64,000 bases of DNA from an uncultured Candidatus Saccharibacteria bacterium. Its GTDB lineage: Bacteria > Patescibacteriota > Doudnabacteria > UBA920. The notes beneath the pieces are model-generated. The model did no database searches. It was not told the origin of the DNA and was given only the letters and a program-made list of their open reading frames with translations. A program made the translations under genes and the position numbers. The stretch lies in contig CAYQEU010000001.1 of assembly GCA_964416765.1 (NCBI GenBank), forward strand, positions 549,357-613,356, written 5' to 3'. Below, piece after piece: positions 9,054 to 58,902 of the stretch; within the stretch, counting starts at the first letter, position 1; every line of letters starts with the position of its first letter.

Positions 9054-9358
9054 AAAATCGCTTTCACCTTATAAAATCCGTCTTTCGTTTCCGGCGCGCC
9101 GGCCAGAATATCGTCACGGTCTTCAGTACGAACCGGTTCATCTAAGCGCTGGACGTTTTCCAGTCCGGTGACGGAGCTGACGATCTCCAAATTTTCAGTG
9201 TCGACTTTCTGCAAATCCGCCACGTAATCCAAAACCGTGCTGAGCCCCTGCTGAAATTTTTCCACTTCTTCAGGGCGCAATTCAATGCGCGCCAATTCGG
9301 CTATTTTTTCAACTTCTTCTTTGCTTAACATAAGGTAATTATAGCTATTACCCGCCAA
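9050..9358 (-). CDS. gatC: Glu-tRNA(Gln) amidotransferase subunit C
   Basis: About 100 aa with a GatC-like sequence (LSKEEVEKIAELARIEL...). Sits immediately upstream of gatA with a 4-nt overlap. Confidence 0.8.
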   Translation of the reverse strand: MAGNSYNYLMLSKEEVEKIAELARIELRPEEVEKFQQGLSTVLDYVADLQKVDTENLEIVSSVTGLENVQRLDEPVRTEDRDDILAGAPETKDGFYKVKAIL

Positions 9359-9378
9359 AAAATAAAGACATAATTAAA

Positions 9379-9404
9379 GGGCACTCGGTCGAAACTTTGT
9401 GCCC
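9379..9404 (-). terminator. Intrinsic terminator/attenuator hairpin (GGGCAC...GTGCCC) between the orphan transcript and gatC
   Basis: 6-bp GC stem with 14-nt loop, followed on the minus strand by TTTAATTATG..TTTATTTTTT and on the plus strand by TTTTCC. It lies 20 nt upstream of the gatC start. Confidence 0.45.
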
Positions 9405-9452
9405 TTTTCCGTGTTCCATGATAACCTCAACTGTTTTGCCGGTTGGCAAAGA

Positions 9453-9705
9453 CTACTCGTAAGAGCCTTCGTGGTTTCCCGGCGACCATGTTCGTGGGTC
9501 ATCCGAAAGACTAGGTCTTTGCTTTTCGCCCGAGCATTCCCGGCGCTGGTTATCTTCCGTAGTGTCCGCCACTCGTTGCGGCGTTTCTTCGTGTTTCTTT
9601 TCGTTACACTGCATATCTGATACGGTCTCCTTGTTATAGCTTCCCCCTTGTTCTTTTCCTGAAATAAAAAGTAACCCGCCGATTCTCGCGGCGAGATTAC
9701 ATGTG
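9453..9705 (-). ncRNA. Orphan transcription unit: candidate sRNA or cis-regulatory leader of gatCAB (also contains a 53-aa charged ORF 9453..9614 with an AGGAG SD)
   Basis: Bounded by a perfect promoter (9712..9740) and the hairpin at 9379..9404. No conserved protein. I looked for RNase P, SRP and T-box signature motifs and did not find them. Confidence 0.35.
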
Positions 9706-9711
9706 AGAGAA

Positions 9712-9740
9712 AGTATACAATTTTCAGGCACAAAAGTCAA
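9712..9740 (-). promoter_or_regulatory. Sigma-70 promoter, TTGACT-N17-TATACT
   Basis: Minus-strand -35 TTGACT (9740..9735), 17-nt spacer, -10 TATACT (9717..9712). Confidence 0.55.
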
Positions 9741-9795
9741 GGCTTTCATTGCCAGGTCACGGGTGATATACTAACTATATAAGTAAAAATACATT

Positions 9796-10344
9796 ATGTT
9801 TCTAGCAATAATTATTGTAGTTGTTATTTTGGCCATTTTGGCCTTTCTGTACAATTCGCTGGTTTCGGCACGTAACCGCGTGGAAGAAGCCTGGAGCGAT
9901 ATTGAAGTGCAATTAAAGCGCCGGTATGATCTCATTCCAAATCTTGTTAATACGGTAAAGGGTTATGCAGCTCAGGAATCAGGAGTATTGGAAAAAGTTA
10001 CCGAAGCTCGCACTCGGGCTATGGGAGCGCAGACAGCTGAAGAAAAGTTGAAAGACGAAAATGAATTGTCCGGCACATTAAAAAGTTTGTTCGCCGTAGC
10101 CGAAAATTACCCGGACCTTAAGTCGAACCAGAACTTCATGCAGCTCCAGTCGGACTTAACTGACACTGAGGACAAAATTCAGGCCGCTCGCCGTTTTTAC
10201 AACGGCAATGTCCGGGATTACAATACCAAACTACAGATCTTCCCCACCAACATTTTCGCCCGCGTGTTCGGGTTTACCACCAAACAATTCTTCGACATCC
10301 CTGATGGCGGCAACGAAAGCCAGCCTGTCGAAGTTAAATTCTAA
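9796..10344 (+). CDS. lemA: LemA family membrane protein
   Basis: N-terminal TM followed by a LemA-type conserved block (RNRVEEAWSDIEVQLKRRYDLIPNLVNTVKGYA). Confidence 0.85.
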   Translation: MFLAIIIVVVILAILAFLYNSLVSARNRVEEAWSDIEVQLKRRYDLIPNLVNTVKGYAAQESGVLEKVTEARTRAMGAQTAEEKLKDENELSGTLKSLFAVAENYPDLKSNQNFMQLQSDLTDTEDKIQAARRFYNGNVRDYNTKLQIFPTNIFARVFGFTTKQFFDIPDGGNESQPVEVKF

Positions 10345-37988: not shown

Positions 37989-38121
37989 ATTTATTGATTG
38001 AATTGTGTTTTTGTTTCTATGTGGAACTATTTTGGTTCCGCTAGATTACTCACTATATCCTTATTATAGCATAGTTTAAGAAAAATTGCAACCGCATTTA
38101 GACGACTCTCCCCCGCGGGCG

Positions 38122-38127
38122 TATAAT
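38122..38127 (+). promoter_or_regulatory. -10 TATAAT 6 nt upstream of ATG (leaderless DUF192 gene)
   Basis: TATAAT-TAACTC-ATG; no SD sequence. Confidence 0.4.
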
Positions 38128-38133
38128 TAACTC

Positions 38134-38658
38134 ATGAAAGTTTACGGGAAAGAATTTGGGAAAGTTTTTGTAATTGTTTTGGCGGCGGTGTTGTGCTCCG
38201 TTGCCGTGGGAATTTATTTTATGGAAAATAAAACAGCGCCTGAGGCGGCTGAAGCCACCGGCGCGGCGCGTCTGAATTTTGACCACAATGTTATGTTGGA
38301 TGGAGCGAGCCTGAAGGTAGCGCTTGCCGACACCGACCAAACCAGACAGCAAGGGCTCTCCGGCCAAACCTCGCTGACGGACAGTGAAGGAATGATGTTC
38401 GACTTTTCCAACTCCGAACGGCGCCGTCCGGGATTCTGGATGAAAGAGATGCAATTCCCGCTCGACATCATTTGGGTTAAAGACAATGTCGTCATCGATA
38501 TCGCGCGGGATGTCCCGGCTCCCAACACGGGGACGGAACTTTCCAAGCTCCCGCTTTATTTCCCCCCAACTGAAATAGACAAAGTAATTGAAGTTAACGC
38601 GGGATGGTGCGCGCGCCACAACATTGGCAACGGCAGTAAGTTAACTATTAGCAAGTAA
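38134..38658 (+). CDS. DUF192 (COG1430) family protein
   Basis: N-terminal TM plus conserved DUF192 blocks (GLSGQTSLTDSEGMMFDF..., FWMKEMQFPLDIIWV). Confidence 0.65.
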   Translation: MKVYGKEFGKVFVIVLAAVLCSVAVGIYFMENKTAPEAAEATGAARLNFDHNVMLDGASLKVALADTDQTRQQGLSGQTSLTDSEGMMFDFSNSERRRPGFWMKEMQFPLDIIWVKDNVVIDIARDVPAPNTGTELSKLPLYFPPTEIDKVIEVNAGWCARHNIGNGSKLTISK

Positions 38659-49563: not shown

Positions 49564-51306
49564 TTACATTCGTTCAGGGGCCGTGATGCCCAGCAGGCCC
49601 AAGCCGTGGCTTAAGACATTGGCAGTGGCTTCAAGCAAAGCGAGGCGCTGTATCCTAATTTTCGGGTCGCTTTCCTTAATAATCGGCACGTCGTTGTAAA
49701 ACCCATTAAACGCGCTGGCTAACTCATGAAGATAATTGCATAGCAAGTTGGGTTTGTACTCCGAGGCGGCTGCGATAATGGCGTTTTCGTAGCGATTGAG
49801 CAAACGCATGAGGTTCAGTTCCGGTTCGCCTGAAAGACTTTCTATCTTGGGCGCGGCCGCTTCCCCGGCTTTTTCAAAAATACTTTTGATGCGGGCATGG
49901 GCGTACTGGATATATGGCCCGGTATTGCCCTCCAAGGAAATGGTTTGTTCGATATCAAAGTAAATCCTGGTCTGGGGTTCATAGTGCAAGTAGCCATACT
50001 TAATGGCGCCATAAGCAATTGATTCAACCAAGGCCTCATCGTCAGCCGAACCCTTCAGGCGCTCCAGAGTAGCCATGGTTTGCTTCACCCGGTCTTTCAC
50101 GCTCTCGAGCAGGCCGTCCGAAGTAATGGCATTACCTGACCGGGATGACATCTTGTCCTTGCCTAGGTAAACATGTTCGTAGGGCAAGTGGCGGAAGTTT
50201 TTTGACCAAGGGTATTCAAGCAACTCAAAAATGCGGCGGAGTACTTCAAAATGGTACGACTGTTCGCTTGCGGTGGTGACAATGGCCAGGTCAGGACTAT
50301 GCCGCCTGTTGCGAAGATCCCACAAATACATGTCCTGCGTTATGTAAATGGTGGTGCCGTCTTTCCGGAGCAAATATTTTTTGCCCAAATGCTCCTCCGG
50401 GAATGACACGCTCACGCTCCCGTCTTTTTCCTGCTGAAAAATTCCCTTCTCTACTCCAGACATGACTAAGTCACGCCCTTTGTCATAGATTTCACTTTCA
50501 AAATCAACTTCGTCAAAGGTAGTGCCTTCCTTTTCGTAGGTTTCTTTTACGCCTTCAAAAAACCAAGCGTTCATTTTTTCCCATAAGGCGCGGACTTCCT
50601 GATCCCCGGCTTCCCAGCGGCGGAGCAGTTCCTGAGCTTCATCATTGAGTTCTTGCTCTGACTGTTGGTTCACCGAAGATTTTTCACCAAACATTTTATA
50701 AAAATGCCCCACGAAATGGTCCGGTTTCATCCCCGCTTGCTCAGGGTTTTGCCCATCGCCAAATTTCATATACATGAGCACGCTCTTCATTATGTGAATA
50801 CCGCGGTCGTTGATAATTTCGCAGGTAGTCACGTCATACCCCAGCGCCTGCAGTAAGTTAATACAGGCCTTGCCGTAAACATCATTGCGGACATGGCCGA
50901 TGTGCAGGGGCTTGTTGGTGTTCGGGCTGGAATACTCAAAAACTACTTTCTTTCCTTCGCCGATTTTCGGTCCCCCCATGAACTCACCAGCTTTGAGCTG
51001 GGTGGTGCGCTCGGCAAGGGCCATGCCAGATAGCTTAAAGTTTATAAAACCGCCCGCGGCCTGAACGGACTCAAATTTATTTGCTGCGGCTTGGTCCGCC
51101 GCTGTAAGCTTTTCTGCTAAATCTGTTGCTATGGCGTTGGGGTTAGCCTTAAGCTGGCTGGCCAGCCGCATGGCAACATTGGTAAAGTAATCGCCGTGGG
51201 CGAGCTCAGGCAAACCCACTTCAATTCCGGGAATGTCCTGAAGTTTTCCGGCGGCCTGCATTTCACTCAAAATGCCCTGTAATAGCTGTAAAACGTACTG
51301 TTTCAT
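49564..51306 (-). CDS. argS: Arginyl-tRNA synthetase
   Basis: SSPNTNKPLHIGHVRN HIGH motif; 580 aa; ArgRS-type N-terminal domain. Confidence 0.9.
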   Translation of the reverse strand: MKQYVLQLLQGILSEMQAAGKLQDIPGIEVGLPELAHGDYFTNVAMRLASQLKANPNAIATDLAEKLTAADQAAANKFESVQAAGGFINFKLSGMALAERTTQLKAGEFMGGPKIGEGKKVVFEYSSPNTNKPLHIGHVRNDVYGKACINLLQALGYDVTTCEIINDRGIHIMKSVLMYMKFGDGQNPEQAGMKPDHFVGHFYKMFGEKSSVNQQSEQELNDEAQELLRRWEAGDQEVRALWEKMNAWFFEGVKETYEKEGTTFDEVDFESEIYDKGRDLVMSGVEKGIFQQEKDGSVSVSFPEEHLGKKYLLRKDGTTIYITQDMYLWDLRNRRHSPDLAIVTTASEQSYHFEVLRRIFELLEYPWSKNFRHLPYEHVYLGKDKMSSRSGNAITSDGLLESVKDRVKQTMATLERLKGSADDEALVESIAYGAIKYGYLHYEPQTRIYFDIEQTISLEGNTGPYIQYAHARIKSIFEKAGEAAAPKIESLSGEPELNLMRLLNRYENAIIAAASEYKPNLLCNYLHELASAFNGFYNDVPIIKESDPKIRIQRLALLEATANVLSHGLGLLGITAPERM

Positions 51307-51494
51307 AGAGGTAATTATAGCATAATTTCAGGCACAAATTTGACAGTATTTCGGGTTATGCTAGAGTTAAACCAGTATGAATATATCAGCTACCTTTACC
51401 TATAACTGGCATTTCTTCAGCTTTTCCCTAAAGCCGGTTTTTGGTTATGTAGCTATCAGATAGTACCACCAGGTACAAATCAGCATTCTACCTA

Positions 51495-55968: not shown

Positions 55969-56018
55969 TCGCCCCAAGGGCGATTTTTTTATCCCCCAAA
56001 CAATGTTAAAATTAACCC

Positions 56019-56447
56019 ATGGCGCTAATCGCAAAGAACAAACGAGCCACATTTGATTACGACATCAAGGATACTTTTGATGCCGGTTTAGTATTGTCCG
56101 GTGCCGAAGTGAAATCCGCCAAAGCCGGCAACCTGTCCATGACAGGCAGCTACGTGACCGTCGCGCAAAACGGCGCCAACCTCGTGGCCCTGCACATTGG
56201 CCCTTATCCCTACGCCCCCAATGAGGGCTACAACCCCACCCGTACCCGGCAGCTGCTCCTCAACAAATCCGAACTAAACTCGCTAATAGGCAAAGAGAAA
56301 GGGTTGGCTATCATTCCATTGGAAATATTCCACAACAACCGCGGCCTGGTCAAAGTCAAAATCGGACTGGGTCGGCCGCGCAAAAAAGAAGACAAACGCG
56401 ACTACCTCAAGAAGCGCGAAGATATCCGCGAAATCCGAGAAACCTAA
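56019..56447 (+). CDS. smpB: SsrA-binding protein
   Basis: 142 aa with a canonical SmpB sequence (ATFDYDIKDTFDAGLVLSGAEVKS...GLGRPRKKEDKRD). Extended -10 TGTTAAAAT lies 6 nt upstream of the ATG. Confidence 0.9.
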   Translation: MALIAKNKRATFDYDIKDTFDAGLVLSGAEVKSAKAGNLSMTGSYVTVAQNGANLVALHIGPYPYAPNEGYNPTRTRQLLLNKSELNSLIGKEKGLAIIPLEIFHNNRGLVKVKIGLGRPRKKEDKRDYLKKREDIREIRET

Positions 56448-58471: not shown

Positions 58472-58500
58472 TTGACAAAATGCCCAAAAAGGTGTATAAT
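58472..58500 (+). promoter_or_regulatory. Consensus sigma-70 promoter TTGACA-N17-TATAAT driving tmRNA
   Basis: -35 TTGACA 58472..58477; 17-nt spacer; -10 TATAAT 58495..58500. The mature tmRNA 5' end is 10 nt downstream. Confidence 0.75.
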
Positions 58501-58510
58501 ATGTATTCAT

Positions 58511-58902
58511 GGGGATGCCGGATTTTGACAAGACGGAAACCTCAATTGATATGCAAGACGAGCAAGCATTCTAACTCGCAAATCTGGTATGCAACAATAA
58601 ATGCTAACGCATTTTCTAAGGTAAAGGAAGCTATGGCTTTGGCCTTCGCTCCTGTACCTGTACTCGCCTAACATAACTGGCTAGTACCCTGGCCCTCAGG
58701 TCTCCCTGCTTGAGGACCACCAGGTTCATTTTGGGATATAGCTTTATGGTTTGATTTACGCCGTAAAGTGGAACATTGGTAAATCAACTTTTGTTCTTAG
58801 CTGTCCACCGCTTGGGCAAAAGTACTTTGATGGACTAATCTTGTGACCAATCAGTTTGGGAATTTGTTTTGGACGCGAGTTTAACTCTCGCCATCTCCAC
58901 CA
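58511..58902 (+). ncRNA. ssrA: tmRNA (SsrA), ~392 nt including encoded CCA
   Basis: 5' GGGGATGCCGGATTTTGACAAGACGG and 3' GGACGCGAGTTTAACTCTCGCCATCTCCACCA closely match the E. coli tmRNA termini. Acceptor pairing GGGGATG/CATCTCC, T-arm GCGAG-TTTAACT-CTCGC. UCGCAAA resume-codon context, as in E. coli. Confidence 0.85.

Follow-up and report, generated by a model that had tools for sequence, protein, structure and literature searches.

A probable clade-restricted small-protein gene between lemA and gatCAB in a Doudnabacteria-like Patescibacteria genome

The interval between lemA and gatCAB in a Patescibacteria (Doudnabacteria-like) genome contains a small unit, bounded by a putative promoter and a putative terminator, that holds a frame of 53 codons. 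We analyzed this unit in a stretch of 64,000 nucleotides (nt) of contig CAYQEU010000001.1 (GenBank assembly GCA_964416765.1, positions 549,357 to 613,356 of the forward strand), hereafter the window, in whose coordinates all positions are given. The unit lies on the minus strand and faces gatC. A first-pass annotation of the window had taken it for either a small RNA (sRNA) or a transcription-attenuation leader of gatCAB, with no convincing protein. We arrive at a different reading. With a probability of about 0.6, the unit is an autonomous, monocistronic small gene between the divergent lemA-htpX and gatCAB, and most likely a small-protein messenger RNA (mRNA) whose RNA sequence is additionally constrained. 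The frame is open in all four versions of the unit that we recovered, the one insertion or deletion (indel) within it is in frame, and its C-terminal part shows an excess of synonymous changes. These three observations make a small-protein mRNA likelier than a pure sRNA, and the dismissal of any convincing protein was too strong.

The unit was recovered in many contigs through a metagenome GatC scan, protein searches and contig look-ups. These collapse to four versions, namely that of the window (identical to one Logan contig and one NCBI contig), L088, the L113 type and the L118 type. Further members of the GatC and LemA clusters added only identical copies or contigs too short for the unit. 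The closest matches to GatA among species-representative genomes are metagenome-assembled genomes of Patescibacteria at 72-74% identity, labelled Candidatus Doudnabacteria, unclassified Patescibacteria group bacterium and Candidatus Saccharibacteria (one each). As a neutral benchmark we used the four-fold degenerate sites of lemA, gatC and gatA, which are 45-64% identical between the lineages; the synonymous divergence (dS) of lemA and gatC is 0.63-1.2. The four versions of the unit are 83-91% identical over 380 nt. Searches with blastn and nhmmer for extra copies in the window and 141 loci returned orthologous copies only, and found no repeats in the window; a distant blastn search found no phage or plasmid match. 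By these comparisons, the unit occurs only within a single narrow clade. Conservation in related genomes, on which the first-pass annotation had made its own proposal depend, was found in all four lineages. With promoter hexamers and hairpins kept, and with untranslated regions (UTRs) and open reading frame (ORF) far above the neutral benchmark, the sequence of the unit is functional by comparative criteria.

The 53-codon frame is open, with the same start and the same stop, in all four lineages, so that the check on its conservation proposed by the first-pass annotation came out positive. Within the ORF a single indel occurs, an insertion of 3 nt in L118 that yields 54 amino acids (aa); indels of 1, 2-5 and 10 nt occur in the UTRs. 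On the frame criterion, that is, an open frame with indels only in multiples of three, the sequence behaves like that of a coding small ORF (sORF). Codons 18-53 are 91-97% identical between lineages. Their 12 variable codons comprise 7 synonymous and 5 non-synonymous ones with no stops, the best result of the six frames, as the other five frames over the same stretch have 1-4 synonymous codons and/or stops. Differences between the window and L113 number 3, 1 and 11 at codon positions 1, 2 and 3, respectively (P = 0.002). In a permutation test we placed the observed column patterns anew and scored the probability of finding no stop together with at least as many synonymous codons. This probability is 0.042 for the whole ORF and 0.006 for codons 18-53, whose synonymous excess has P = 0.006-0.009. 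Divergence jumps right behind the stop codon, and the spacer that follows it (24-28 nt) is 24-77% identical, with indels of 10 nt and 2 nt. The synonymous changes in L113 break three predicted pairs inside the ORF region.

Several observations weigh against a small-protein mRNA. The sample amounts to only four distinct sequences, and the split of the ORF into an N-terminal and a C-terminal part was made post hoc. Codons 2-17 hold no synonymous variable codon versus 11 non-synonymous ones, and the synonymous count over the whole ORF, 7 of 23, is equalled by two antisense frames. The dS of the ORF is 0.05-0.34, several-fold under that of lemA and gatC, and the untranslated 5' region is strongly conserved, at 78-95% identity between lineages versus 45-64% at the four-fold sites of the neighbours. 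The low dS of the ORF and the conserved 5'UTR together argue that selection acts on the nucleotide sequence itself. A Shine-Dalgarno (SD)-like AAGGAG/AAGGA is conserved, but its distance of 12-13 nt to the ATG exceeds the usual spacing of a Shine-Dalgarno sequence. The first-pass annotation had noted a 53-aa ORF with an AGGAG SD; the ORF holds up, and in the window the AAGGAG lies 12 nt from its ATG. An SD at 4-10 nt precedes about 6 of 50 crudely called genes of the window, so that an SD does not appear to be the rule here. The AlphaFold model of the peptide is of low confidence (predicted local distance difference test, pLDDT, 62) and consists of one helix. Finally, an exhaustive HMMER search, which covered 1.84 billion protein representatives, brought up no relatives beyond the clade's own cluster, P0003.

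The predicted peptide is very hydrophilic and acidic and lacks a hydrophobic core, and is therefore probably disordered. Its conserved part is the C-terminal 30-odd residues, RRECSGEKQRPSLSDDPRTWSPGNHEGSYE, and its N-terminal third evolves fast. Searches of the peptide against Pfam, NCBIfam, PHROGs and PDB sequences gave nothing meaningful. We rejected one match, P0004 (236 aa, presumably eukaryotic, cystatin-like; E = 8e-5 on DDPRTWSPGN, with six GGDPRTWGPGNQPQ repeats), as a coincidence driven by the repeats rather than homology. The variants in codons 2-17 (9563-9611) fall into two 'alleles', with the window and L113 on one side and L088 and L118 on the other. This sorting conflicts with the rest of the unit, which suggests recombination or diversifying selection.

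Gene callers report the 53/54-aa ORF in relatives such as L113 and L118, but they do so unevenly. The ORF is called in some contigs and skipped in DNA-identical ones (L123, L125, L131, L132, L134, L135 and L137 versus L113 and L118), and the window genome's own annotation has a 98-aa extended version instead, so that annotation of this sORF is unstable. Two longer mechanical ORFs, one of 98 aa and one of 119 aa, overlap the region. The first-pass annotation had left them out, and neither withstands comparison. The 98-aa ORF (9749-9453; gene caller and NCBI) is broken by a 2-nt indel in L088 and by larger indels elsewhere, and the 119-aa ORF (9733-9374) has stops in L088 and L118 and 1 synonymous versus 11 non-synonymous variable codons. 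We likewise rejected an antisense ORF of 73 aa (9399-9620, plus strand), with a stop in L113 and 4 synonymous versus 8 non-synonymous variable codons, and a mini-ORF behind GAGG-N5-ATG (9419-9348), which varies in length and whose changes are explained by covariation of the terminator hairpin.

The candidate promoter of the unit, P1, consists of TTGACT and TATACT separated by a spacer of 17 nt. It is present on the minus strand as the first-pass annotation had stated, but with 10 of 12 consensus positions it is not 'perfect', as was claimed. The only 12/12 match in the window, TTGACA-17-TATAAT, lies at 58472-58500 (plus strand), ahead of the gene for transfer-messenger RNA (tmRNA) at 58511-58902 (120 bits). 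Promoter matches of P1 quality number 17 in the window versus 11.8 in shuffles; the motif alone is at chance level, and the reality of P1 therefore rests on conservation. Both hexamers are invariant in the four lineages, and the spacer, fixed in length, differs at about 6-9 of 17 positions per pair and so diverges at about the neutral rate. By these sequence criteria, hexamers at 17 nt that are conserved relative to neutral flanks, P1 is a sigma-70-type promoter.

Two hairpins lie near the ends of the predicted transcript. The 5' hairpin, about 5 nt past the predicted start, folds at -14 kcal/mol (z = -3.1) and is terminator-like in a scan. It is stronger in this respect than the 3' hairpin and was absent from the first-pass annotation. 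Its stem is kept in the four lineages through U.G/U-A and C-G/U.G changes, with a register shift in L113, and its U-run and the CAGG behind the U-run are invariant. Also invariant is an AUG-UAA 'start-stop', and the 9 nt ahead of it vary. The indels of the 5'UTR (1, 2-5 and 2-5 nt) are not multiples of three. The 3' hairpin has a 9-bp (base-pair) stem with folding energies of -13 to -15.5 kcal/mol across the four versions. At one of its pairs the window has G-C, L088 and L118 have G.U and L113 has A-U, a compensatory series. Its T-rich tail, UUUAAUUAUG..UUUAUUUUUU, ends at 9357. Its interrupted tail (UUUAAUUAU) and its long loop (14 nt) explain why a simple scan missed this hairpin. On the strength of its stable stem, its U-rich tract and the compensatory change, the 3' hairpin is, by sequence criteria, an intrinsic (Rho-independent) terminator. 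The first-pass annotation had described a GC hairpin and T-tract 20 nt before gatC. The hairpin and the T-rich tail are as described, but the T-run ends 25 nt, and the 3' stem 44 nt, before the gatC ATG (9331).

Between the ORF stop and the terminator, the GAGGUUAUCAUGGAACA segment is 89-95% identical between lineages. It resembles an SD and AUG at ideal spacing, though SDs are rare in this genome, and the frame behind its AUG runs for 21-30 codons, passes through the terminator and has no coding signal. RNAalifold pairs GGUUAUC, within GAGGUUAUCAUGGAACA, with GAUAACC inside the ORF (codons 21-23); this predicted 7-bp long-range helix shows one G.U/G-C change only. The fold of the whole region is only marginally more stable than that of shuffles (z = -1.8), and the composition is strongly skewed toward A over T, a poor composition for a highly structured RNA. 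The consensus fold of the whole transcript has no covariation support beyond the two terminal hairpins (covariation term +0.94), so that the covariation analysis across relatives that the first-pass annotation had suggested finds support there only, in the series of the 3' hairpin among others. The Rfam/Infernal scan that it had likewise suggested matches no family to the unit. At gathering score, Rfam 15 (4227 models) has no match in the unit or in relatives L088 and L113, and in the window it finds the tmRNA (58511-58902) and three transfer RNAs (tRNAs) only; ARAGORN also places three tRNAs elsewhere. A permissive scan of 9200-9900 (E <= 10) returned four chance-level matches, none in the body of the unit. 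These scans of the region agree with the first-pass annotation that T-box, RNase P, signal recognition particle (SRP) and tmRNA motifs are absent.

We also compared the surroundings of the unit among relatives. In L088, the L113 type and the L118 type the unit adjoins lemA, as it does in the window, and about 660 nt then separate it from gatC. This stretch opens with a second promoter. Next come a leaderless ORF of 34 codons and then a CxxC ORF of 93-103 aa, each with its own terminator, and after these gatC. The second promoter lies about 15-20 nt past the 3' hairpin and reads TTGACT-17-TATAAT in L113. L083, whose GatC is 80% identical, has a homologue of the 34-codon unit beside lemA, lacks the present unit and carries an unrelated 143-aa ORF upstream of gatC. 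In L002, lemA and gatC are 67 bp apart and the unit is absent; in L001 and L003, secA lies upstream of gatC, with unrelated AT-rich spacers. The lemA-gatC interval thus measures 67 bp in L002, about 440 bp in the window and about 1.1 kb in L088, L113 and L118, and holds other cargo in L083. As compared here at the level of sequence, it behaves as a small variable islet that collects autonomous mini-genes.

The second autonomous unit (L088 540-790; L113 1778-1985; L083 860-1090) is missing from the window and is distributed more widely than the 53-codon unit. Its ORF of 34-35 codons reads MYNATYCIKPIRSVVANPIGLLLARTIIVAIKRR or MHNANSCIKSVRPVTANQIGLILVCPHEVAKKRR, and in L083 MYNLAIHAIWIKRNFAKNIGINFAYGQGVAGGIST, and it ends in a conserved terminator, AAACTCGCTAC..GTAGCGAGTTTTCTTTTG; searches of this unit found no Rfam or protein-family match. 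The 93-103-aa ORF, with a C-terminal CxxC...C (L088 796-1107; L113 2028-2333; L118 3456-3737; L140 105-392), is also missing from the window and has only sub-threshold Pfam matches, to the C1_2 and Yippee zinc-binding families.

As the first-pass annotation had observed, a TATAAT lies exactly 6 nt before the gatC ATG, and this layout is kept in relatives. A -10-like hexamer stands exactly 6 nt before the ATG in all seven close relatives (L001, L002, L003, L083, L088, L113 and L118), and 13 of the 27 gatC loci examined have the same layout; gatC keeps it whether or not the unit is there. This conservation argues that gatC has its own promoter, with a predicted start at the A of the ATG and hence, most likely, a leaderless mRNA. 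The arrangement TATAAT-N6/7-ATG recurs at other genes of the window, at about 38120-38136 (plus strand; 38134), 51306-51321 (minus strand) and 56005-56021 (plus strand; 56019). Such genes have no SD and often share the string TATAATTAnCYY-ATG. This recurrence suggests that leaderless mRNAs may be widespread in this Patescibacteria genome.

These comparisons bear directly on the proposal that the unit is a cis-acting leader of gatCAB (an attenuator, T-box or riboswitch), whose 3' hairpin would be regulated so that read-through expresses gatC. The window by itself fits this proposal, since promoter, about 330 nt, hairpin with T-tract and gatC are contiguous there, and there is a precedent in Clostridium acetobutylicum, whose gatCAB is under the control of a T-box (Saad et al. 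2012, PMID 22505715, cited in PMC4206432). The likeness to that system is that, in this one window, a structured RNA with a promoter ahead of it and a terminator at its end lies directly upstream of gatC. Unlike it, the unit has no model match, no specifier/antiterminator architecture and no conserved linkage to gatC, and gatC has a promoter of its own. In three of the four lineages about 660 nt with two other transcription units, and thus a promoter, two ORFs and two terminators, come before gatC, and the -10 hexamer of gatC is kept whether the unit is present or absent. No T-box (RF00230) or riboswitch model matches the unit or its relatives L088 and L113. Moreover, the 3' hairpin is a stand-alone stem with no conserved alternative (antiterminator) pairing to its 5' arm, and the neighbour that the unit keeps throughout is lemA rather than gatC. 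Because of the intervening units and the independent gatC promoter we reject the leader or attenuator reading, which we regard as extremely improbable. The fallback of the first-pass annotation, a leaderless gatC next to an independent sRNA, comes closer: the independence of the unit and the leaderless gatC are supported, and it is in the pure sRNA that it falls short, a small-protein mRNA being likelier.

Functionless debris is also a very improbable explanation. The variability of the lemA-gatC interval among relatives and the confinement of the unit to one narrow clade are what a decaying pseudogene fragment or mobile-element remnant in a variable islet would lead one to expect, but the unit is 83-91% identical where neutral sites are 45-64% identical, its hexamers are invariant, its hairpins are kept by compensatory changes, and the searches for repeats in the window and for phage or plasmid similarity came back empty. 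A non-coding sRNA of about 340 nt, trans-acting or protein-binding, with a frame that is incidental to a purine-rich, T-poor sequence, has more in its favour, and we consider it unlikely but worth serious attention. The transcribed sequence is far above neutral throughout, including the 5'UTR and synonymous positions; the window differs from L088 and L118 by 1-2 synonymous differences in 36 codons, and the four-fold sites of the neighbours differ by 36-55%. An sRNA would equally account for an N-terminal third without a coding signature, a poorly placed SD, a predicted peptide with neither fold nor homologues, and conserved hairpins at both ends. Against it, however, the unit has no Rfam family even at E <= 10, its RNA body has no covariation support, and an A-rich, U-poor RNA of this kind folds weakly (z = -1.8). 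The changes in L113 disrupt predicted pairs, but of the 8 codons that they alter in the C-terminal part 7 are altered synonymously, and the frame stays intact with an in-frame indel in the four versions, whereas the UTR indels are frame-breaking. We therefore prefer a small-protein mRNA with added constraint on its RNA.

The features of the locus are collected in Table 1. Upstream, the divergent lemA, which the first-pass annotation had also overlooked, starts at 9796 on the plus strand, and TAGTATATCA at its putative promoter is invariant across the four lineages. The neighbourhood of the unit comprises clpB, recX, htpX and lemA.

Table 1. Predicted features of the small unit and of its two boundaries, in window coordinates
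Feature	Position	Strand	Basis or remark
Extended -10 (TGATATACT) of divergent lemA promoter	9764..9772	+	Upstream boundary; assignment inferred from sequence
P1 -35 hexamer TTGACT	9735..9740	-	Promoter scan; invariant in 4/4 lineages
P1 -10 hexamer TATACT	9712..9717	-	Promoter scan; invariant in 4/4 lineages
Predicted transcription start of unit	~9705-9704	-	Inferred from spacing
AUG-UAA 'start-stop'	9697..9702	-	9 nt past -10; overlaps 5' hairpin arm; sequence reading
5' stem-loop GUAAUCUCGCCG-CGAGAAU-CGGCGGGUUAC	9700-9671	-	Followed by U-run UUUUUAUUU at 9670-9662; whole element 9662..9700
Rest of 5'UTR, A/G-rich	9615..9661	-	With invariant AAAAGAACAAGGGGGAA and AAGGAG (9632-9627)
53-codon ORF MQCNEKKHEETPQRVADTTEDNQRRECSGEKQRPSLSDDPRTWSPGNHEGSYE and stop	9453..9614	-	ATG 9614-9612, TAG 9455-9453
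Segments predicted to give tryptic fragments of peptide			QRPSLSDDPR, TWSPGNHEGSYE
Variable spacer right behind ORF stop	9429..9452	-	Least conserved transcribed segment
Conserved GAGGUUAUCAUGGAACA: SD-like GAGG and AUG	9412..9428	-	Between ORF stop and 3' terminator
3' terminator hairpin AAAGGGCAC..GUGCCCUUU	9407-9376	-	With tail UUUAAUUAUGUCUUUAUUUUUU; element 9357..9407
gatC -10 TATAAT (9343-9338) and ATG (9331-9329)	9329..9343	-	Downstream boundary, outside unit

We propose the following working model for the unit. The sigma-70-type P1 would drive a transcript of about 340 nt, divergent from lemA. The nascent RNA would form the 5' stem-loop at once, and this could serve either as a stabilizer of the 5' end or, in view of its U-run, as a promoter-proximal terminator that limits read-through; the hairpin would in this way tune stability or premature termination. 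Transcripts that continue would carry the A/G-rich 5'UTR and the 53-codon frame, which is presumably translated. Transcription would stop at the 3' hairpin, which would insulate the next unit (gatC in the window, the 34-codon unit in relatives), and gatCAB would be transcribed separately, as a leaderless mRNA, from the TATAAT 6 nt before its ATG. The conserved C-terminal half of the peptide, RRECSGEKQRPSLSDDPRTWSPGNHEGSYE, is likely to be its functional part, with the N-terminal third free to vary. The neighbours lemA, htpX and clpB at most suggest a stress-related hydrophilic small protein. We also considered a dual-function RNA, in which a ribosome on the 5' AUG blocks the terminator (9700-9662) and so licenses the ORF, and in which the RNA body has a second function. 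Where leaderless starts are common, as seems to be so in this genome, a ribosome that occupies the 5' AUG-UAA could prevent formation of the terminator. Bearing on this idea, the four lineages share an invariant AUGUAAUC, hairpin and U-run, the 9 nt upstream vary, and conservation far in excess of the neutral level extends to the 5'UTR and to synonymous sites. We nevertheless hold this arrangement to be quite improbable.

Catalogues for E. coli, Bacillus and other bacteria contain orphan small-protein genes of up to 50-60 codons that have a promoter and an intrinsic terminator of their own. Many characterized bacterial small proteins are membrane helices. The present unit is like those orphan genes in being monocistronic, in setting a short ORF between a sigma-70-type promoter and a hairpin terminator, and in being lineage-restricted, without a family and unevenly called. 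It differs from them in that its predicted product lacks any hydrophobic segment and is extremely hydrophilic and acidic, that its 5'UTR of about 95 nt opens with a terminator-like hairpin, and that its synonymous sites are unusually conserved. Other known systems include sRNAs that also encode a peptide, such as SgrS/SgrT, RNAIII/delta-haemolysin and SR1/SR1P. The predicted transcript of about 340 nt would resemble these dual-function sRNAs in its conserved UTRs, short ORF and terminator and in its combined signatures of amino-acid and nucleotide constraint. Unlike them, it comes with no identified base-pairing target, seed region or chaperone link, and in the Rfam scans it resembles none of these families in sequence or structure. 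Leaderless mRNAs, with a -10 element about 6-7 nt before the start codon, are well known in Actinobacteria, Deinococcus and archaea. As in those organisms, a TATAAT-like hexamer stands 6-7 nt ahead of the ATG at gatC and at several other window genes, which lack an SD and whose starts are predicted; the 53-codon ORF itself is unlike them in having a 5'UTR of about 95 nt.

Taken as a whole, the unit is probably a fairly ordinary clade-restricted orphan small gene, and some signs point to a role for its RNA sequence as well. One consequence is that a false lead is removed, as there is no new riboswitch or attenuator for tRNA-dependent amidation at this locus. Another is that the apparent layout of gene expression in a Patescibacteria genome has been documented, with predicted leaderless TATAAT-N6-ATG starts, rare Shine-Dalgarno sequences and an islet of mini-genes. 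Neither outcome for the unit, protein or RNA, would overturn current understanding. If the RNA-level constraint is real, the unit would be among the few candidate regulatory RNAs in this group, and if the frame is translated, a disordered acidic micro-protein would join the poorly known small proteome of these episymbiotic bacteria.

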